DNA of 64,000 nt, taken from assembly GCA_964520045.1 (NCBI GenBank), contig CAZFMJ010000003.1:10272-74271 (forward strand), given 5' to 3'. Below are positions 48,095-60,708 of this stretch, piece after piece. Under the pieces are notes generated by a model. It was not told where the DNA came from, did not search any database, and saw only the letters and a list, made by a program, of their open reading frames with translations. Source of the stretch: an uncultured Elusimicrobiales bacterium. GTDB taxonomy: Bacteria > Elusimicrobiota > Elusimicrobia > Elusimicrobiales > CAZFMJ01. How positions within the stretch are numbered: the stretch's first letter is position 1; the number at the start of each line of letters is the position of its first letter. The position numbers and the translations under genes are program-made.

Positions 48095-49411
48095 CTATTT
48101 TGAACTACTACGGCCTTTCATTCCGGCGGAGCTGAAACTGACCAGTCCGAGCAGATACGCAATATCCTTGTCTTCAAAGGTCACATTGGCGGTATACTGA
48201 ACGCGCTTTGTTTCCCGTAAGTCATTTACCCGGGCGCCCAAAGCGACAAACCTGTTTAATTTTACCTCCGCCCCGATATCATATTCCGTATGATCAAACC
48301 GCCTGCCTTCTACTATCCTGTTTCTCGCGAAATCAAAAGCTTCGGCAAGAAGAACGATCCTGTCCCAGTCTTTATTCGCATGGAACGGCCTGTATTTTAT
48401 GCCTGCGCCCCCGGACCCGCGGGTGATGCCCGCATAAAGATCAAAGGCGTCGTATTCCCAGCCGAGCTGGGCGTCTATTCTATTCTTCCTTTCATAATCC
48501 GTCGCCTTGGGCATGTCGGAAGGATTGCCGAAATTGGAAACGCCGAGATAATAATATCTGCCCTCGCGCGGATATATTTTTACGCCGATATCTCCCCTTG
48601 AGGCCTTTGCAAGCGGTTCATATCTGTTTCTGTACTGCCAGTATGTCCTGAATGAATTAATTCTGCCCAAAACGTCTTTTGCCGAAGCTGAAGCCTCCTT
48701 GAAATTGCTCAGGGTCTCGGTGACATTGTCTTTTACTTTTTCGTCGCTTACCAAAGCCCCGATTGTGCCGGTTCCGGAATTTATTTTGGTCACCAGCGTG
48801 TCTACTTTCGACAAAAGAGAATCCAGCTTCTCTGAAACAGAATCCAGCCGCGACATGGCGTTCTCCATATGCGGCCCCGAATCGCCCACAATATCATTTA
48901 TCCTAGCCGTGGTTTCTCTGATATTGGAAAGGGTGGCATTAAGACTTTCGCCGATTCCGCTTTCTCCGCCTACGTCGTCCAGAAGCTTTTGCAGACTGCC
49001 TAAAGCCTGGGCAAGCGATTTGTCCAGCGGAACGGTATCCTCGCCCTTGACCGTGCTTCCGGCCGGAATTATTCCCGCCGACGGAGTCCCTTGGTCTATC
49101 TGAAGAAACTTGCTTCCTATAATACTGGTGGAGCCTATTGTGAATCTGGCATTTCTGTATATTTTCATGTCCTCATAGATCGAAAGCTCAACAACCACTT
49201 TATCTTCTTTTATGCTGATTTTTTTCACCTTTCCGGCTTCCACTCCGGAAAGTTTCACCAGAGATTTATCAGGAAGGCCCGCCACATCCCCAAACACCGC
49301 ATAAATATCGTACCGCCTGTATATGGAAAAATCCCCCAGCAGAAAGATAGCGGCGGCCAGCAAGGCAAGGCCTGCCAGCATGAAAAGCCCTACTTTTGTC
49401 TCATTGGTCAT
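48095..49411 (-). CDS. mlaD: Long MlaD/MCE-domain protein with helical stalk and beta-rich C-terminal domain
   Basis: 438 aa. The N-terminal anchor TKVGLFMLAGLALLAAAIFLLG is followed by an MCE domain and about 130 aa of helical repeats. The last roughly 170 aa have alternating beta-strand-like patterns (DIGVKIY, YYYLGVS, AQLGWEY, GAGIKYRPF, YDIGAEVKL, VQYTANVTF). Confidence 0.75.
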   Translation of the reverse strand: MTNETKVGLFMLAGLALLAAAIFLLGDFSIYRRYDIYAVFGDVAGLPDKSLVKLSGVEAGKVKKISIKEDKVVVELSIYEDMKIYRNARFTIGSTSIIGSKFLQIDQGTPSAGIIPAGSTVKGEDTVPLDKSLAQALGSLQKLLDDVGGESGIGESLNATLSNIRETTARINDIVGDSGPHMENAMSRLDSVSEKLDSLLSKVDTLVTKINSGTGTIGALVSDEKVKDNVTETLSNFKEASASAKDVLGRINSFRTYWQYRNRYEPLAKASRGDIGVKIYPREGRYYYLGVSNFGNPSDMPKATDYERKNRIDAQLGWEYDAFDLYAGITRGSGGAGIKYRPFHANKDWDRIVLLAEAFDFARNRIVEGRRFDHTEYDIGAEVKLNRFVALGARVNDLRETKRVQYTANVTFEDKDIAYLLGLVSFSSAGMKGRSSSK

Positions 49412-50177
49412 ATTCGTCCAAATCCCGCAGTTTCATTTTTATGGGACCGGCGCTTGAGCCTTCCATAAACTGCCTGACATGCGCATTAGCGGTGGTCTTG
49501 AATTTTTCAGGAGTATCCGTCAGCAGAAACTTCCCATCGTAAAGCATGGCTATTCTGTCGGATATTTTATAGGCCGATTTTATATTATGCGTCACGACTA
49601 TCGAAGCGATGCCCAGCTTCAGCTTTAAATCCGATATAAGATCGTTTATGATATCCGACATTATCGGGTCAAGACCCGTCGTAGGCTCATCATACAAAAT
49701 AAACTCGGGCTCAGTCGCGATGGCGCGGGCCAAAGCCACGCGTTTTTTCATTCCGCCGGAAAGCTCCGAAGGAGGCATGTCTTCCACCCCTTTTAATCCC
49801 ACCAATGCCAGTTTCTCCGAAGCGATACGTCTATACTGAGACGGCGGGATATCCGTCAGATACTTCAGGCCGAAAGCCACATTTTCGCCCACCGTAAGAG
49901 AGTCAAAAATAGCGCCCTCCTGAAAAAGATATCCGAATTTTTTTCTGACCGAAGCAAGCTTGTATTCATCCGTTATGCCGGAAATATCTTCGCCGTTTAC
50001 TATTATCCGCCCGCTGTCAGGCTTTAAAAGCCTTATTATGCATTTTATAAAAGTGCTTTTTCCGGAGCCGGACCCTCCCATGATGCTCACTATTTCTCCT
50101 TCCTTAAGGGAAAGAGAAACCCCTTTAAGCACCTGCCGGTCCCCGAATTTTTTATATAAATCAACTACTTCAATCAT
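49401..50177 (-). CDS. mlaF: ABC transporter ATPase MlaF
   Basis: 258 aa with Walker A GGSGSGKST, signature LSGGMKKRV and Walker B ILYDEPT. Overlaps mlaD by 11 nt. Confidence 0.85.
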   Translation of the reverse strand: MIEVVDLYKKFGDRQVLKGVSLSLKEGEIVSIMGGSGSGKSTFIKCIIRLLKPDSGRIIVNGEDISGITDEYKLASVRKKFGYLFQEGAIFDSLTVGENVAFGLKYLTDIPPSQYRRIASEKLALVGLKGVEDMPPSELSGGMKKRVALARAIATEPEFILYDEPTTGLDPIMSDIINDLISDLKLKLGIASIVVTHNIKSAYKISDRIAMLYDGKFLLTDTPEKFKTTANAHVRQFMEGSSAGPIKMKLRDLDEYDQ

Positions 50178-50182
50178 TTACA

Positions 50183-52834
50183 TTACACCAGCCCTGAAAC
50201 ATCTTTAACATGTTTAAATTTTACTTCGGGAAATTCCCTAAAATGCGCTTCCCCGCATTTGATTTTCATTTTTTCCTGCGGCCTGAGTTTATTCATATCT
50301 ATGGTGGATTTCGTTTCCGCCACAAAATAAATCTTATTCTCGTTTTTATAAATCAATGCCCAATCCGGATTATACTCCCCTATTGGGGTTTGAATAACAA
50401 ACCAGTCGGGCAATTTAATAAAAAACTCCACATTATCGTTGCGCTCGCAGTCTTCGGCAAACTTCCGCTCCACATCCGACATGGAATCAATGATTAAATG
50501 ATCGGTTATGGTCTTTTCGGTTTTGGTTATTTTATAGAGATTATTTGTATAGGTTTCAACATCCTTGTCCGCAAACCGCATCATCGCGTAGGCATTCCCC
50601 GCTATCTTCTCGTATTTTATCCCATCGATCATCAACTCATGCAATGAACCCTTAATCTCATTCACCGCCAAATCAAGAAATAACTGAGGATTTTTCATAA
50701 TATCCCTCAGCCTGCAGGACTGTTTTAAAATTTTAAGTATTGTGGAACGGGTAAGCTCCGTTTTGCTTTGGATATATCCTGCCGCATCCGGAATTTCCAT
50801 TTTAGGCAAAGCCCGCCAGCCCGCTGAAGTTTCTCCTACAATTTCTGAATTAACCTCCTGTTTGGTTATCTTAATTTCAGCCCTTACGGCTTTTATAACC
50901 GGTCTTAGAATCTCCGGCATGGATTTAATTTTTCGGGCAGACATCTTTACCAGCTCGTCAGAATCGTATTTAACCCTGTATGTGGTTTTTTGCTTAATCT
51001 TCTCCCAAAGTTCAAGGAATTTTGTATCAAGCTCAAAACCTTTGCGGTATTTAATTTTTATCCTGTCCCTTTTATTCTTTATCCTACCCTCAAATTTAAC
51101 CCCGCATTCATCTTCAATTTCAATCTGAAGCCTTTTTGCAAAATCCTCATAGCTTTCATTGGCAATAACCGTAAGCCGGTTTATGTTCTTATCGCGCAGT
51201 CTCAAGCCGCTCTGATCAACGCAAAGTCTCATGCCCCGTCCGATTTCCTGCCTCTTCTTCATCTCAGATTTGGTTTCATGCAGGGTGCAAATCTGAAAAA
51301 CATTAGGATTATCCCAGCCTTCGCGCAACGCCGAATGGCTGAAAATAAACTGCAAAGGCTCATTGATATCCAAGAGGCGCTCTTTGTCTTTCATGATAAG
51401 ATGATACGCATCATCATCTGCTTTGGTTTCCCGCCCTTCCGATGAATCTTTTAAGACGCCTTTCTTGTCTTGGGCAAAATAGCCATTGTGAACATTGTCC
51501 GCCGAATAATCGGCGATACCGGCATACATGGGCTTTTGCTTAAATTTTGTGTAAATTTCTTCAAACCACTCCGCAAACTTGCCTTTTTGGGGAGTCCCGT
51601 CTTCCGCATAATGCCGATAATTATCAACCCTGTCTATGAAGAAAAGGGAAAGCACCTTAACGCCCTTGGACTTAAGTTTTAACTCTTTCTTAAAATGCTC
51701 TTCTACGGCTTTCTCCATCTGATATTTCATTATCTGGTCATTAAGTCCGCCGTGTGTTTGGCCTTTATAAAGAACATCGCCGTTTGAGAACTCAATGAAG
51801 CCATCCCGTGCGTCTATATTGTTTATGATATAGCCGTCTTTATACGCTTCCCGTTTATTGGAATGCTCGTAAAGGTCATCGCCGTTTTTAGCCGTCAGGC
51901 TCTTGCGCTCAACAGCATTATTTGTATTAACATCTATTTTTATTTTTACCGCCAGCGTTGTTCTGGCAGTTTTAAAATCTTCAATCTGGATAAAAGCCCT
52001 GTTCTTGTCATTGGCGGCAAAAACCGAATCTACCTCTATCTGTTTCACAAGCCCTAAGTCATAGGCCTGCACGGGGTCAAGTTTATATATCGGATTATAA
52101 AGGTTTCGATGTGTCGCGGAATAACGAAGCGTAAAAGCCGGGCTAAGATTTGAGAGAGCCTTCTTTCTAATATCCGTCTCCATGTTCTGCGGCTCATCCA
52201 CAATCACCACTGGATTAACCGCCTGTATAAACTCTACCGGTTTTTTGCCGTTCAGCTTATCATTGCGTTTATTTATTACATTCTCGTCCTTGGCAAAAGA
52301 ATCGATATTTATAACAAGAATCTGAATGGCATTGCTATCGGCAAAACTTCTGAGGACGGAAACCCTTTCTGCGGCATAAACCTGATATGCTACAGGGGTT
52401 TTATTGTAGATGGTTTGAAAATGCTCAGTGGTTATCTCAAGATTTTTGAGAGCGCCTTCCTTTATGGCAATACTCGGCGCTACTATCACAAATTTCTTAA
52501 AACCGTAACGATTGTTCAGCTCATAAATTGTGCGCAGATAGACATATGTTTTGCCGGTGCCTGTTTCCATTTCAACGGAAAAATTCAACCCCTCAAGTTT
52601 CTCCGAAAGCGGCAGATTGTTGTTTTTTTGAACTTCCCTGAGATTCTTTAAAATCTGTTCTTCTGAAATTGCCAAATCATTGCGGACTCCGGAAAACTTA
52701 AGCCCCAACCCGTCATTTCCGCCCAAGGAAAACTCAAAGTCACCCTTATTCAGAGGCTGGCCGTCAAACAACCCAATCACAGATTGGATAGCTTGAAGTT
52801 GATAGTCCTGGTTTGCGTCAAAGTGAAGTTTCAT
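50183..52834 (-). CDS. Type III restriction Res-like SF2 helicase with C-terminal PD-(D/E)xK nuclease motif; no Mod partner in window
   Basis: 883 aa. N-terminus MKLHFDANQDYQLQAIQSVIGLFDGQP, Walker A VEMETGTGKTYVY, motif II VIVDEPQN, and C-terminal YNPDWALIY...YFVAETK. No SD upstream (ctattagtaaatccATG). Confidence 0.75.
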   Translation of the reverse strand: MKLHFDANQDYQLQAIQSVIGLFDGQPLNKGDFEFSLGGNDGLGLKFSGVRNDLAISEEQILKNLREVQKNNNLPLSEKLEGLNFSVEMETGTGKTYVYLRTIYELNNRYGFKKFVIVAPSIAIKEGALKNLEITTEHFQTIYNKTPVAYQVYAAERVSVLRSFADSNAIQILVINIDSFAKDENVINKRNDKLNGKKPVEFIQAVNPVVIVDEPQNMETDIRKKALSNLSPAFTLRYSATHRNLYNPIYKLDPVQAYDLGLVKQIEVDSVFAANDKNRAFIQIEDFKTARTTLAVKIKIDVNTNNAVERKSLTAKNGDDLYEHSNKREAYKDGYIINNIDARDGFIEFSNGDVLYKGQTHGGLNDQIMKYQMEKAVEEHFKKELKLKSKGVKVLSLFFIDRVDNYRHYAEDGTPQKGKFAEWFEEIYTKFKQKPMYAGIADYSADNVHNGYFAQDKKGVLKDSSEGRETKADDDAYHLIMKDKERLLDINEPLQFIFSHSALREGWDNPNVFQICTLHETKSEMKKRQEIGRGMRLCVDQSGLRLRDKNINRLTVIANESYEDFAKRLQIEIEDECGVKFEGRIKNKRDRIKIKYRKGFELDTKFLELWEKIKQKTTYRVKYDSDELVKMSARKIKSMPEILRPVIKAVRAEIKITKQEVNSEIVGETSAGWRALPKMEIPDAAGYIQSKTELTRSTILKILKQSCRLRDIMKNPQLFLDLAVNEIKGSLHELMIDGIKYEKIAGNAYAMMRFADKDVETYTNNLYKITKTEKTITDHLIIDSMSDVERKFAEDCERNDNVEFFIKLPDWFVIQTPIGEYNPDWALIYKNENKIYFVAETKSTIDMNKLRPQEKMKIKCGEAHFREFPEVKFKHVKDVSGLV

Positions 52835-53097
52835 GGATTTACTAATAGTTTTACCAATATTTACTAATAATTTAATCCCAAAAAATGCTTAATTTTGTTA
52901 TGTTTTTTAGAAATATGCTCATTTTATAACTATTTATTACTAATCTATAACTAATTTTTTCATTTCGTCCAGACAAACGACACCACCATCACATGACCAT
53001 CACATGAGATTTATGCCCAAATGGGTAACCCTCAAAAAGCCAAAGCACAGCCTAAATAGCCCAAACTTAATAATCCCAGTTCGCGTCAAATGTGCCA

Positions 53098-53125
53098 TTG
53101 ACTTTTCCAATAAATGTGTTATACT
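53098..53125 (+). promoter_or_regulatory. Strong sigma70-like promoter with extended -10, pointing antisense into the DUF3800 gene
   Basis: TTGACT (53098-53103), a 16-nt spacer ending in TGT, then TATACT (53120-53125). Confidence 0.5.
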
Positions 53126-53249
53126 ATAGACACAAGAGCTGGTGTGGGGCTATCATGTCCTGCTATAAGTTAATTATACTCCGTCTGGATATATTTAACT
53201 GCCAGCTTTTTTCTTTTTCCGACACATGTAATTGCTTTGTATATCCGGG

Positions 53250-54005
53250 CTATGACTCTGCCCCTGTTTCTTTTGCGCTATCCGTCCTTGGTTTTGCAAC
53301 TTTTATTCCCCGCATACGGTTATTCTCATTACTAATAAATTGCGCATTTTTTATCCGCGTGAAAAAATCATGCACATTTTCATCTCCCGTAAATCTCCTG
53401 CCTATTATGTGCGCGAAATTATCAGCCAATTGTATCCCCACATTCTCATTCGAGATCGCAAAAAATGGAACTTTCAATATTTTATCAAAGGATTGTCCCG
53501 ACTGGCTTCTATGGAAAAAATTGCTAATTGACATGGATATGCGGCGATTGCCTTCCGCGCCTCTGTCGTCAAAAACTATTTTTGCGATTAATGAGGCATG
53601 ATTTTCCTTCACATATTGATGTATTCTCTCAAATAAAAAGAAAAAAGGCCGGTCAAGATTATTCGGATCGGAGCAGGACAAGCCGAGTTCTTTTTCTTCA
53701 AAAGTTACTACCCCAAAAATTTTACCTCCGTTGGATATGTATAAATCAAATATTTCTCTGGCAAGCGCCAGTTGATTACAAGGAATCCCTTTTGCCTCCA
53801 ACCGGAACATGAATTTGCCGAAAATTGATTTCCCTTTTAGTTCAATATTGCCGGCATCTTTGCCGATATGTTTACATTTTAACCTATAAACATTTCTGGA
53901 AAACTCATTATAAGAAGCGCTTGATATAGCCACCGCAGATAGTACCCCTGCTCGGAATTTACCATCTGCCGTTTTCTGCCATGATTCATCTATAAAAACA
54001 AGCAT
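53250..54005 (-). CDS. DUF3800 family protein
   Basis: 251 aa. N-terminal MLVFIDESW and C-terminal NVGIQLADNFAHIIG match the DUF3800 pattern (acidic FIDES start and QLAD motif). Confidence 0.65.
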   Translation of the reverse strand: MLVFIDESWQKTADGKFRAGVLSAVAISSASYNEFSRNVYRLKCKHIGKDAGNIELKGKSIFGKFMFRLEAKGIPCNQLALAREIFDLYISNGGKIFGVVTFEEKELGLSCSDPNNLDRPFFFLFERIHQYVKENHASLIAKIVFDDRGAEGNRRISMSISNFFHRSQSGQSFDKILKVPFFAISNENVGIQLADNFAHIIGRRFTGDENVHDFFTRIKNAQFISNENNRMRGIKVAKPRTDSAKETGAES

Positions 54006-54279
54006 TTCATACCCCGATATTGTGTTAATTCCAATTAAATCGTCCGAAACTCTATTCCGGCGTCTTTCATTTGCAGGGCTGTGTTGGTTTTGAGCTGATC
54101 ATTGGCTTCAAAATACTATCAAGGCAACCGATTTTTTGCGGCTTACGCTTAATTCTGACGTTTTAGCCCTCCCCCCACACTCTCTCCCACAAGGGGCGGG
54201 AGTTTATCTCTGATGGCGTAGGAAAATACTCCTACTTCGATAAAGCTATCGGTAAAGCACGTTTTTCAACTACCTTCCT

Positions 54280-55062
54280 CTATGTTATTCCTATCGCCAC
54301 AAGCACCGCCGTTACAAAATAATCCAAAATCATGATAAGCACCATACTGGCAACAACCGCGCCCGTGGTTGATTTCCCCACTCCCTCGGCTCCGCCTTTG
54401 GTTGAAAGCCCTTTGAAACAGCAGACCGTGGCTATTATAAACCCGAAAACGAAAGTCTTTAAAAATCCGTGCATGAAATTTTTTATTTCCATGAACGTGA
54501 AAATATCGTCAAAATAAACGCTGCTTGAAACTCCCAGTTTTGAGGCGCTCACCAGCATGCCTCCTATAATTCCGGAAAAATCCGCAAACACGGTCAGCAA
54601 AGGAAGCATAACAAGAAACGCTATATATCTGGGTATGACAAGATATCTTATGGGGTTGGTGCCGAGAGTGTAAAGGGCGTCTATCTGCTCGGTAACTTTC
54701 ATTGTTCCTATCTCCGCGGCCGCCGCGGCGCCGGCGCGTCCCGCAACGACTATGGCGGTAAGCACCGGGCCAAGCTCTTTGACAAGAGAAAATCCAACCA
54801 CCGTGCCCACGAAAAGCGGTTCATTAAAAAGGCTTTTTGAGGTTGAACCGGACTGAAGAGCCAGAACCATTCCGGTAAAAAAACTCGTAAGCATGGTAAC
54901 CGGCAGGGACTGCACTCCCACGCGGAAACACTGCAGTACGGCCTGCTTTATCTCAAGCTTGGAATGAAAAAACCAAAAAAAAGACGAACGCACCATAAAA
55001 GCCGCGCCGCCGGCGGTTTCCGCCGCAAAAATAAGCCTTTTGCCCAAAAACCGTAAAATCAT
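54280..55062 (-). CDS. mlaE: ABC transporter permease MlaE
   Basis: 260-aa polytopic protein with GRAGAAAAAEIGTMKVTEQIDAL and NPIRYLVIPR motifs typical of MlaE. Confidence 0.85.
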   Translation of the reverse strand: MILRFLGKRLIFAAETAGGAAFMVRSSFFWFFHSKLEIKQAVLQCFRVGVQSLPVTMLTSFFTGMVLALQSGSTSKSLFNEPLFVGTVVGFSLVKELGPVLTAIVVAGRAGAAAAAEIGTMKVTEQIDALYTLGTNPIRYLVIPRYIAFLVMLPLLTVFADFSGIIGGMLVSASKLGVSSSVYFDDIFTFMEIKNFMHGFLKTFVFGFIIATVCCFKGLSTKGGAEGVGKSTTGAVVASMVLIMILDYFVTAVLVAIGIT

Positions 55063-59312: not shown

Positions 59313-59344
59313 AGACATATTTTATTAAATTTTAGAGGTGAATT

Positions 59345-60607
59345 TCAAGAGAGCCCCCATACCTGCGGGTCCAGATTCGACTGGCTTATGATTTGATTGT
59401 AAAGATATTTCACTGTCTGCTTGGAATTCAATTCGCAGGACGGCGCGTCCAAGACAGCGCACAAATCCCTATCATAGACAAAAGGCTGCAGTTTTAAATT
59501 GCTTCCGACGCGCATCTTCCGGGCATGGCCGGAGGCATTTATCACATGAAGCATAGCGCGTATGCGCTTATCATAACCGAGGCATTTGGAATAATACCTC
59601 GCCGTAAAATCAATAACCTTTTCCAAAAAAGGAATGACCGACTCGGGGGAAAAAGAATTAACGCTTTCGGGAAGCTTGGCTAAACTGGCATCGGCGAACA
59701 CAAGCACGTCATTTTCATAAAACCGCGCCAGCTGCATCTTGTCCGCCGTTATGCTTTCCGAATGATACAGCGTAAATCCGCCGAAACCTGCTTCCTCAAG
59801 CATAAAAACAGGGGTCAGCATCGGCAGGGACGGGAAATGCTCAAGTATCCATTTTTTATGCGCATTGATTTTAAAACTGCTTTTTTCCAGAGCCGCCGGC
59901 TGGGCGCTGAATGCCACATAGAGCTCTTTTTTGCTCTTAAAATACCAGTTTGAATCAAGCAGAGAGAAAAAAGTTATTTTACTTGAGGCAGCCACGCCGG
60001 ACAATGCCTGAACCGTCTGCGTTTCGGGCTTGGTTAAAACATGGCCGGCCCCGGGCTGAACATATAAATACGCTTCCTGATTCCCAAGCACAGTGCCCAC
60101 CGATGTATAGAGCGGCTGTATTGAATCATCCAGAACCATGTATATCTCGCTGGGAATAAGCATTGCGGAGCCCGATGCCAGCTCCCTTGCCTGATCTTCC
60201 ATTCGCGCGGCCAAAACAACGCCGGGACTTCTGATCATGCGGTCGACATCATTCCAATAGCGGGCCGGAGCAGAAGCAATGCCTATCCGGAACCTGTTGT
60301 CGGGAAGAATTTTGAACAGCTTATCCAGAATATCCCGCGCCATCGACTCGCCCAGCCGCATTATCTCGTCTTCATCTCCAGTCGTGCCCAAAAACGCCAC
60401 CGCTCCGTCCCCCTGCCACGACCCGCCCCCCCCGCCCCTTGCCCTTACTTCCTGTTCCACGAGCTCGGTATATGCTTTGCTCATACTGCGGTATTGGCCG
60501 GGGCTGGTATTGGATATGATCTTTTCGCTGCCGACCATATCTATGCGCATGAAAAAAAGCTGTCCGTATTCTCCGTCTTTGAGCATAAGAGTAGTATATT
60601 TTAGCAC
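59345..60607 (-). CDS. Class III nucleotidyl-cyclase-like N-domain fused to an unknown roughly 230-aa C-domain
   Basis: 420 aa. FFMRIDMVGSEKI, SWQGDGAVAFLG, RFRIGIASAP and PGVVLAARMEDQA fall in the order and spacing of class III cyclase core motifs. The C-terminal half is unrecognised. Confidence 0.5.
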   Translation of the reverse strand: MLKYTTLMLKDGEYGQLFFMRIDMVGSEKIISNTSPGQYRSMSKAYTELVEQEVRARGGGGGSWQGDGAVAFLGTTGDEDEIMRLGESMARDILDKLFKILPDNRFRIGIASAPARYWNDVDRMIRSPGVVLAARMEDQARELASGSAMLIPSEIYMVLDDSIQPLYTSVGTVLGNQEAYLYVQPGAGHVLTKPETQTVQALSGVAASSKITFFSLLDSNWYFKSKKELYVAFSAQPAALEKSSFKINAHKKWILEHFPSLPMLTPVFMLEEAGFGGFTLYHSESITADKMQLARFYENDVLVFADASLAKLPESVNSFSPESVIPFLEKVIDFTARYYSKCLGYDKRIRAMLHVINASGHARKMRVGSNLKLQPFVYDRDLCAVLDAPSCELNSKQTVKYLYNQIISQSNLDPQVWGLS

Positions 60608-60708
60608 AAAATCCGCATGGCTATTTCTCTATGCAACAAAACCCGCACAACAAAAGAGGAGCGCTTTCGCGCTCCTCTTATTAAATTAAACCGTCCCTGA
60701 TAAAAATA

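Follow-up and report, generated by a model that had tools for sequence, protein, structure and literature searches.

What does a cyclase-like protein with an unfamiliar C-terminal half do directly in front of a ribosomal protein operon? The question is raised by an open reading frame (ORF) on the minus strand of the 64,000-nucleotide stretch analyzed here (the window), which is part of contig CAZFMJ010000003.1 of an uncultured Elusimicrobiales bacterium. The ORF spans positions 59345..60607 and, counted from a GTG in the ORF list, encodes 420 amino acids; residue numbers throughout follow this numbering. A first-pass annotation had described the product as an orphan protein in which a class III cyclase-like N-terminal domain (N-domain) is fused to an unrecognized C-terminal domain (C-domain). 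We found that the N-domain is a divergent member of the class III cyclase superfamily and that the C-domain is an autonomous, portable module. The explanation we favor, giving it about an even chance, is a cyclase under sensor control, in which the C-domain would be the sensing or regulatory module and the cyclase head its enzymatic output.

The N-domain was assigned by structure, profile and conserved residues. An AlphaFold2 model of the full-length protein was built on the family alignment (mean predicted local distance difference test score, pLDDT, 77.9) and compared with the Protein Data Bank (PDB) using Foldseek, where it matched more than 40 class III cyclase chains with E-values from 1e-8 to 1e-6. 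The match to 1wc1 had E=1e-8, and the target template modeling scores (TM-scores) for class III cyclases were 0.6-0.76. The matches include CyaC, Rv1900c, CyaB, Ma1120, photoactivated cyclases and the Pycsar cUMP synthase 7r65 (BcPycC, E=5e-7), and the order of the secondary-structure elements in the model fits the palm-type beta-alpha-alpha-beta-beta-alpha-beta cyclase fold. The family profile of the N-domain agrees with the fold: it matched CyaB (E=1.8e-6) and Ma1120 (E=2.2e-6) over profile positions 13-159, and furthermore photoactivated cyclases, the cytidylate cyclase 8jsf (E=3e-4) and 7r65 (E=1e-3). Single-sequence searches of Pfam, NCBIfam and the PDB with the window protein returned nothing usable. 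The PADLOC model of PycC matched it weakly (E=0.019) and over residues 19-72 only; several other members of the family match this model weakly, the best of them being P0012 (E=2e-5).

The four core motifs quoted in the first-pass annotation are present in the expected order, with FFMRIDMVGSEKI at residues 18-30, SWQGDGAVAFLG at residues 63-74, RFRIGIASAP at residues 105-114 and PGVVLAARMEDQA at residues 128-140, and they align with solved structures in the profile searches. In the profile register, D23 and D67 fall on the metal-binding Asp residues of CyaB, Ma1120 and Rv1900c, the key residues R105-x-R107-x-G109 (R105-F-R107-I-G109 in the window protein) on the RxGxH strand, and AAR135xE on the (N)xAxR(L)E helix. 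Across the 14 full-length members (31-56% identity), neither of these metal-binding Asp residues varies, nor does the transition-state Arg, R135. A missing cyclase fold or variable metal-binding Asp residues had been named as findings that would speak against the assignment; since the fold is present and the Asp residues are invariant, the assignment stands. By fold, profile and metal site, the N-domain belongs to the class III superfamily as a divergent branch. What it has in common with CyaB, Ma1120, Rv1900c, CyaC and the PF00211 family are the palm fold, both metal Asp residues, the RxG strand and the AxR(L/M)E helix in register.

The differences from these enzymes lie close to the catalytic residues. 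Four residues ahead of the Arg, where the canonical ribose-orienting Asn would stand, the window protein has Val131; the residue had been read as Leu, and the HMM alignment gives Val131 and not Leu132. Val or Ile occupies this position in 13 of the 14 full-length members, with Asn in P0007 only. At the position of the purine-specifying Lys (four before the second metal Asp) stands Ser63, with a small residue across the family, and the second base-specifying position falls in a variable, gapped region of the alignment. By alignment, both the Lys/Asp pair (adenylyl) and the Glu/Cys-type pair (guanylyl) are absent. An invariant Trp64-Gln65 stands just before the second metal Asp. Finally, the window protein carries the additional C-domain and is missed by the Pfam model PF00211. 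To judge from these residues, the chemistry of this divergent branch may be non-canonical.

A sister group was found in Spirochaetes (P0025-P0044, including L019 9605-10621 from a Spirochaetes metagenome-assembled genome, MAG). Its proteins of about 300-326 amino acids consist of an unassigned N-terminal region of ~140 amino acids and a C-terminal cyclase-like domain. They have the same WxWQGDGG signature as the window family, and in their helix motif, IN[YF]AAHLE, the Asn is kept and His replaces the catalytic Arg. A few of these proteins reach or approach PF00211; P0025 scores 21.4 bits at a cutoff of 21.9.

These substitutions could mean that the N-domain has lost cyclization and serves as an NTP- or metal-binding or dimerizing scaffold, or carries out another nucleotidyl-transfer chemistry, with the activity of the protein located elsewhere. 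Val or Ile in place of the canonical Asn, the absent base-specifying pair (Ser63) and the failure of PF00211 to detect the protein are what would be expected of such a pseudo-cyclase, and the sister group, which keeps the Asn and has His for Arg, indicates that the clade tolerates the loss of transition-state residues. However, it is difficult to see why both metal Asp residues and the Arg would be invariant down to 31% identity if no nucleotide or metal chemistry were involved. Pycsar cyclases are active despite non-canonical base-recognition residues (PMC11224242), and the solved class III cyclase Ma1120 has Ala at the fourth position before the Arg and an Asn two residues earlier, as seen by alignment comparison only. 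We regard a pseudo-cyclase as unlikely.

The C-domain, modeled by itself on 18 sequences, gave a very confident structure (pLDDT 91.8). Its elements follow the order beta-alpha-beta4-alpha-beta2-alpha, its mass is ~24 kDa, and its conserved motifs are FxFxD(306), FYP(321)E, N(357)xxG(360)xxR(363)K and LY(403)xxIxxQS(410)xLD. Pfam searches with all 18 sequences gave no consistent match (scattered single ones above E=0.02), the C-domain profile had no match among the PDB sequences, and a Foldseek comparison with the PDB and BFVD (viral structures) yielded nothing below E=1e-3. The only recurrent weak matches were TBP-like folds, with E-values of 0.008-0.3, TM-scores of at most 0.32 and root-mean-square deviations (rmsd) of 7-9 Å. 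The first half of the C-domain resembles these beta-alpha-beta4-alpha folds (TATA-binding protein, CENP-N/L, S-adenosylmethionine decarboxylase) in element order, but with no significant match this is a lead and not a classification. The C-domain resembles none of the cyclic-nucleotide receptor folds CNBD, SAVED, CARF and STING, all of which are in the searched PDB, and it has neither transmembrane segments nor a recognizable catalytic motif. The earlier observation that the C-terminal remainder resembles nothing known is borne out by Pfam, PDB and Foldseek, and the domain is previously undescribed.

With the full-length model, Foldseek also produced alignments of ~420 columns to human soluble adenylyl cyclase and AC9. 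They would suit a tandem-cyclase pseudo-heterodimer, in which the C-domain is a degenerate second cyclase domain that completes a single active site. The alignments have an rmsd of 17-20 Å and TM-scores of 0.25-0.33, however, and the C-domain model alone returns no cyclase from the PDB. Comparison of the N-domain and C-domain profiles with hhalign gave a probability of 0.6%, and the C-domain occurs without any cyclase partner. The fold search with the C-domain alone and the hhalign result effectively refute this arrangement, and the ~420-column alignments to tandem cyclases are therefore artefacts. The window protein has no second cyclase homology domain, in contrast to soluble adenylyl cyclase and clade A PycC, and we give the tandem reading next to no credence.

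The protein was called an orphan in the first-pass annotation, which is true insofar as the family is extremely rare, but ~25-30 homologues exist in total. An exhaustive HMMER search of 1.84 billion representatives (50% identity) identified 15 proteins, and a word-indexed search of 5.8 billion identified eight. Homologues at identities down to 31-36% align over the full length, with E-values from 1e-44 to 1e-118. Four architectures were found: cyclase plus C-domain (~396-437 amino acids), PIN_4 plus C-domain (P0018, 526 amino acids), DUF4062 plus C-domain (P0021) and the C-domain alone (~206 amino acids, P0020 and P0022-24). The C-domains of the PIN-headed protein, of one cyclase-headed protein (P0011) and of the head-less proteins share 47-52% identity, compared with only 21-37% between this group and the other cyclase-fused C-domains, showing that the C-domain has stayed constant while its heads were swapped. 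Among all fetched loci, an HMM scan detected no such cyclase near the PIN-fused, DUF4062-fused or stand-alone C-domain genes; the C-domain is therefore independent of this cyclase. No homologue was found in viral contigs, plasmid records or phage records, the C-domain pattern being too variable for the viral-contig scan.

Two further arrangements were considered and rejected. A small conserved downstream partner does not exist as such, since the 114-amino acid genes after P0018 and P0008 and the 75-amino acid DUF2188 gene after P0007 are mutually unrelated. A split form of the protein was suggested by a 409-amino acid gene upstream of a stand-alone C-domain gene; this gene is the PADLOC candidate PDC-S54 and not a cyclase head.

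Genomic contexts were compared for 13 dereplicated loci, nine of which are cyclase-headed; P0014 and P0015 are not among the fetched contexts. Hallmarks of defense or mobile elements are present in 8 of the 13 loci and in four of the nine cyclase-headed ones, comprising type I restriction-modification (R-M, three times), CBASS, Gabija, AbiE, PDC-S54, SIR2-like genes and integrases. P0007 is located in a locus that combines type I R-M with a CBASS operon, in the order hsdS-hsdM-Fic-hsdS-[gene]-DUF2188-patatin-SMODS-E2-hsdR. P0011 lies directly after hsdR with a Fic gene nearby. Another homologue (L030) is located between AbiEi/AbiEii and an overlapping hsdR-like gene with a methylase/S-subunit fusion, on a contig that carries a TrwC relaxase, and P0008 abuts a NERD gene on a contig with an integrase.

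Three independent cyclase-headed homologues (L006 246-12062, L020 961-5409 and L030 5787-13747) lie in or against type I R-M loci, two of the three with a Fic gene nearby. This arrangement recalls the PrrC-type genes embedded in type I R-M loci.

The PIN version (L011 3491-9581) is encoded two genes downstream of a Gabija pair, consisting of a GajA-like (AAA_15 / OLD-TOPRIM) and a GajB-like (UvrD) gene; a 300-amino acid gene without assigned function lies between the pair and the PIN_4 plus C-domain gene. The DUF4062 version (L013 10-2636) overlaps a downstream 403-amino acid SIR2-like gene with weak matches (Pfam SIR2_2 E=1.4e-3, PADLOC SIR2 E=7e-5), which is followed by three tandem tyrosine-recombinase genes. 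In two loci (L014 1140-5705 and L015 538-3872) a stand-alone C-domain gene of 206 amino acids is overlapped by a downstream gene of ~903 amino acids, which carries DUF4062 at its N-terminus and matches NACHT/NPHP3_N/AAA_22 weakly (STAND-like). Upstream of the stand-alone gene, L014 contains the PDC-S54 candidate (PADLOC E=4e-156) and a Hypoth_Ymh / PD-Lambda-3_B-like gene. The stand-alone C-domain and the DUF4062-NACHT-like protein may constitute an undescribed two-gene defense system. A domain that stands behind PIN and DUF4062 heads, swaps its heads and is encoded separately beside a DUF4062-STAND gene is most simply explained as a sensing, regulatory or oligomerizing module.

The window copy and its closest relatives, which stem from Elusimicrobia-type MAGs, have non-defense contexts. 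In the window, the nearest defense-like genes (type III Res-like and DUF3800) are 7-8 genes away. Translational coupling to SurE, a 5'/3'-nucleotidase, is seen for the homologue in Elusimicrobia-type relatives, with a gap of 3-7 nucleotides (nt) or an overlap of 4 nt, and these SurE-coupled relatives form one conserved synteny block (surE...pcm-like). A further relative has the gene overlapping a PHP and a GDPD phosphoesterase gene, and the rpsF-ssb-rpsR-rplI-dnaB cluster follows 5 kb downstream. Loci with phosphoesterase coupling are L001 9197-9952, L018 11188-11949, L009 2595-3347 and L005 407-3148. Non-defense contexts were also found for P0012, which overlaps a glycosylase gene, and for P0009, which is located near a Trans_reg_C gene. 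The phosphoesterase coupling in relatives could hint at turnover of the nucleotide product. A SurE, PHP or GDPD link in this genome segment was rejected, since tblastn searches with those neighbors against the window found nothing.

Such contexts suggest another role, that of a housekeeping second-messenger cyclase of an Elusimicrobia-type lineage, whose cyclic nucleotide would serve normal physiology, for instance growth-phase or stress signaling; the C-domain would then be a ligand-binding regulator, and the phosphoesterases of the relatives would turn the nucleotide over. The gene has a GC content of 0.503 and a GC3 of 0.575, in line with its neighbors (window GC 0.49), and the composition check gave no sign of recent insertion. 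The first-pass statement that the gene is inserted upstream of rpsF is correct as to its position. This native composition, the position at the head of the rpsF-ssb-rpsR-rplI-dnaB cluster with a terminator-free junction, the coupling of relatives to SurE or to PHP and GDPD genes, and the retention of the gene across the clade at 45-56% identity are all in keeping with a housekeeping function. Yet a gene with 15 representatives among 1.84 billion proteins is too rare and too patchy for core signaling, and its context differs even among close relatives (the window, L031, L005 and L001). The distant members and every other C-domain architecture are in defense islands or mobile elements, and the SurE, PHP and GDPD genes are absent from the window. 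We consider the housekeeping role possible, if rather doubtful.

The contexts also bear on the comparison with Pycsar that the first-pass annotation had drawn. Its statement that no transmembrane or TIR effector adjoins the gene was correct, the neighbors in the window being a secreted 311-amino acid protein and rpsF. The Pfam annotation of the ~13 dereplicated homologous loci contains no cNMP_binding, TIR or transmembrane effector either. Pycsar and its cGMP offshoot Pucsar resemble the window family in having a divergent class III cyclase found in defense islands, and likeness to Pycsar extends to the weak PycC matches, the structural match to BcPycC and the profile match to 8jsf. In EaPycC, Q144 contacts CTP and stands two residues before D146 (PMC11224242); by comparison of residue numbers, Gln65 has the same distance to the second metal Asp. 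Since Ma1120 also has Gln there, this residue does not discriminate between substrates. In contrast to these likenesses, the matches go no further than the cyclase superfamily, the C-domain is not one described for PycC, and the adjacent CNBD-transmembrane or CNBD-TIR effector of Pycsar has no counterpart in any homologous locus. Because no effector with a receptor (CNBD) for cyclic nucleotide monophosphates (cNMPs) is adjacent anywhere, the window protein is not a Pycsar system.

A Pycsar-like unit could nevertheless be self-contained, with a cyclase that senses infection and makes a cNMP and a fused C-domain that is activated by it in cis as the effector. An architecture of cyclase plus unfamiliar domain is compatible with this proposal, no separate effector gene was found in the homologous loci, and several members match the PycC HMM, albeit weakly. 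Against it, the C-domain is also found on PIN and DUF4062, which are effectors themselves, and on its own without such a cyclase in the locus; it is unlike the known cyclic-nucleotide receptor folds and lacks transmembrane segments and recognizable catalytic motifs. The suggestion that the C-domain is the effector is therefore disfavored, and a self-contained unit appears quite improbable.

A sensor-controlled cyclase of the immunity type is the most likely explanation because the C-domain is elsewhere joined to known anti-phage "killer" domains. In this explanation, the portable C-domain would act as a sensing or regulatory, possibly oligomerizing, module, and in the resting state the cyclase heads would be held apart or autoinhibited. 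A trigger would bind to the C-domain, which might be a phage component for the members in defense islands and a ligand yet to be named for those in housekeeping contexts, and would bring two cyclase domains together. NTP would then be converted to a cyclic or otherwise non-canonical nucleotide, and this product would signal to a receptor encoded elsewhere or act directly, through a drain of NTP or as a toxic nucleotide. Class III cyclases have active sites only at the dimer interface, and assembly likewise activates TIR-type enzymes, so that trigger-induced association via the C-domain could be an economical mechanism common to the different heads. Of these elements, the fold, the conservation of the catalytic residues, the swapping of heads and the genomic associations are shown; sensing by the C-domain, activation through dimerization, the identity of the product and a defense role for the window copy are inferred.

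The cyclase might even be the terminal effector itself. PIN is a nuclease, and in a single-protein immune sensor the cyclase would take the "executioner" slot that PIN or the DUF4062 NADase holds in the relatives; a trigger would dimerize the heads, and the NTP pool would be burned or a toxic or non-canonical nucleotide made. We put little confidence in this stronger proposal.

Several findings weigh against a sensor-controlled cyclase. The sensor role of the C-domain is argued from analogy and architecture, and the domain offers no ligand site or structural match (best Foldseek TM-score at most 0.32). No cyclic-nucleotide receptor or effector was found near any member. In place of the canonical Asn the window protein has Val131, with Val or Ile likewise in every other full-length member except P0007, and catalysis may therefore be slow or different; the window protein also escapes PF00211. 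The family is small, and context statistics are therefore weak. Finally, the window copy and the Elusimicrobia-type relatives are in housekeeping contexts, which makes a domesticated signaling role a live rival and a defense role of the window copy itself a tentative proposal.

Two further known systems offer parallels to the proposed layout. AGS-C is an Ig-like C-terminal beta domain of ~18 kDa on CD-NTases and PycC, and is thought to tune phage sensing. These fusions likewise join a nucleotide-synthesizing enzyme to a C-terminal domain, but the window C-domain is an alpha/beta domain of ~24 kDa, is not Ig-like and has no Pfam match. Experiments described in the Swarozyc and Evangelion preprints identified DUF4062 as a TIR-like NADase effector, with phage sensing by C-terminal auxiliary regions that carry no annotation. 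The likeness to these proteins is one of layout, an N-terminal enzymatic head followed by a C-terminal auxiliary region without recognizable domain. In addition, the relative P0021 joins DUF4062 to this C-domain, and the stand-alone C-domain gene overlaps a DUF4062-NACHT gene. The window protein differs in having a cyclase head and no DUF4062. By analogy, it would work most like single-chain defense proteins composed of an enzymatic head and an auxiliary sensor.

If this explanation is correct, a previously unrecognized domain of ~200 amino acids joins at least three unrelated heads (class III cyclase, PIN nuclease and TIR-like NADase) or stands alone. Portability of this kind would be the hallmark of a module that senses triggers in bacterial immunity and would offer a handle on what these systems detect. 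It would also mean that a class III cyclase works without a co-encoded cyclic-nucleotide receptor, either by signaling to an unlinked target or because the reaction itself is antiviral; neither of these partnerless arrangements has been described for Pycsar-type systems. Should the cyclase be the killer, it would be an executioner rather than a maker of messengers, and the C-domain would represent a portable phage-sensing module of a new class. The family is furthermore a stress test for annotation, since neither of its domains is recognized by Pfam, NCBIfam or PADLOC. As the window copy shows, a gene of this kind with native composition can occur right before a ribosomal-protein operon; it may exemplify a defense-type module that was kept or domesticated at a core site of the genome. 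What is new is the domain family attached to a cyclase of known superfamily, within the limits set by the tiny family, a C-domain that offers neither structural nor ligand clues, and the non-defense context of the window copy.

The positions of the features are listed in Table 1. The ORF of 420 amino acids exists as first described, but translation probably starts at the ATG at 60586 and not at the GTG at 60607, giving a product of 413 amino acids. This start is preferred because every homologue begins at the internal Met8 (sequence MLK[DN]GEYGQ), and the resulting length is exactly that of the metagenome protein P0001. The linker between the two domains varies in length and sequence across the family alignments.

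Table 1. Window coordinates of the cyclase-like gene, its domains and the adjoining elements.
Feature	Position	Strand	Evidence
Two-domain protein, coding sequence (413 amino acids + stop)	59345..60586	minus	ORF list; homologue starts; homologues to E=1e-118
Class III cyclase homology domain, residues ~14-182	60062..60568	minus	Foldseek, profile vs PDB, invariant columns
Key residues D23; D67; V131; R135	60539-60541; 60407-60409; 60215-60217; 60203-60205	minus	alignments
Variable, probably disordered linker, residues ~190-210	59978..60040	minus	pLDDT 31-40 in full-length model
C-terminal alpha/beta domain, new family, residues ~213-417	59357..59971	minus	domain model pLDDT 91.8, predicted TM-score (pTM) 0.89
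Possible extended -10 promoter element TGCTAAAAT	60598..60606	minus	11 nt upstream of ATG; putative, read from the sequence
Intrinsic terminator of upstream 311-amino acid gene	60654..60679	minus	11-bp stem, 7 G-C pairs, then TTTTGTTG
Spacer to rpsF, 26 nt, terminator-free	59319..59344	minus	sequence and terminator scan

The upstream neighbor is a gene for a secreted protein that ends in a strong intrinsic terminator, and this terminator marks the cyclase-like gene as the first of a new transcription unit. An Rfam search around the gene returned the terminator hairpin alone, well below threshold. The possible extended -10 element was missed by the consensus promoter scan because a good -35 element is absent. 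Downstream, rpsF adjoins the gene as stated in the first-pass annotation, at an exact distance of 26 nt instead of ~30 nt, and is followed by ssb, rpsR, rplI, dnaB and alr. To judge from the junction, the cyclase-like gene is probably co-transcribed with rpsF-ssb-rpsR-rplI-dnaB.

In front of rpsF (window 59319-59348), the sole sigma-70-like match is TTGAAA-18-TAAAAT, which agrees at 10 of 12 positions. Its -35 shares bases with the cyclase-like gene's stop codon, and the -10 ends one base before the ATG annotated for rpsF. If this promoter were used, rpsF would be read through from the upstream gene, or start at M3 or M8, or have a leaderless mRNA.

A low-GC stretch at 50000-54200 (0.37-0.43 compared with 0.49 for the window) splits the mla operon, separating mlaD (48095-49411) and mlaF (49401-50177) from mlaE (54280-55062). 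It encodes, both on the minus strand, an 883-amino acid ResIII + RE_endonuc protein resembling type III restriction Res (50183-52834), with no Mod methylase gene adjoining, and a DUF3800 protein (53250-54005, GC 0.39). Located 7-8 genes away from the cyclase-like gene, this stretch has the appearance of a small defense-type insertion gained by horizontal transfer.

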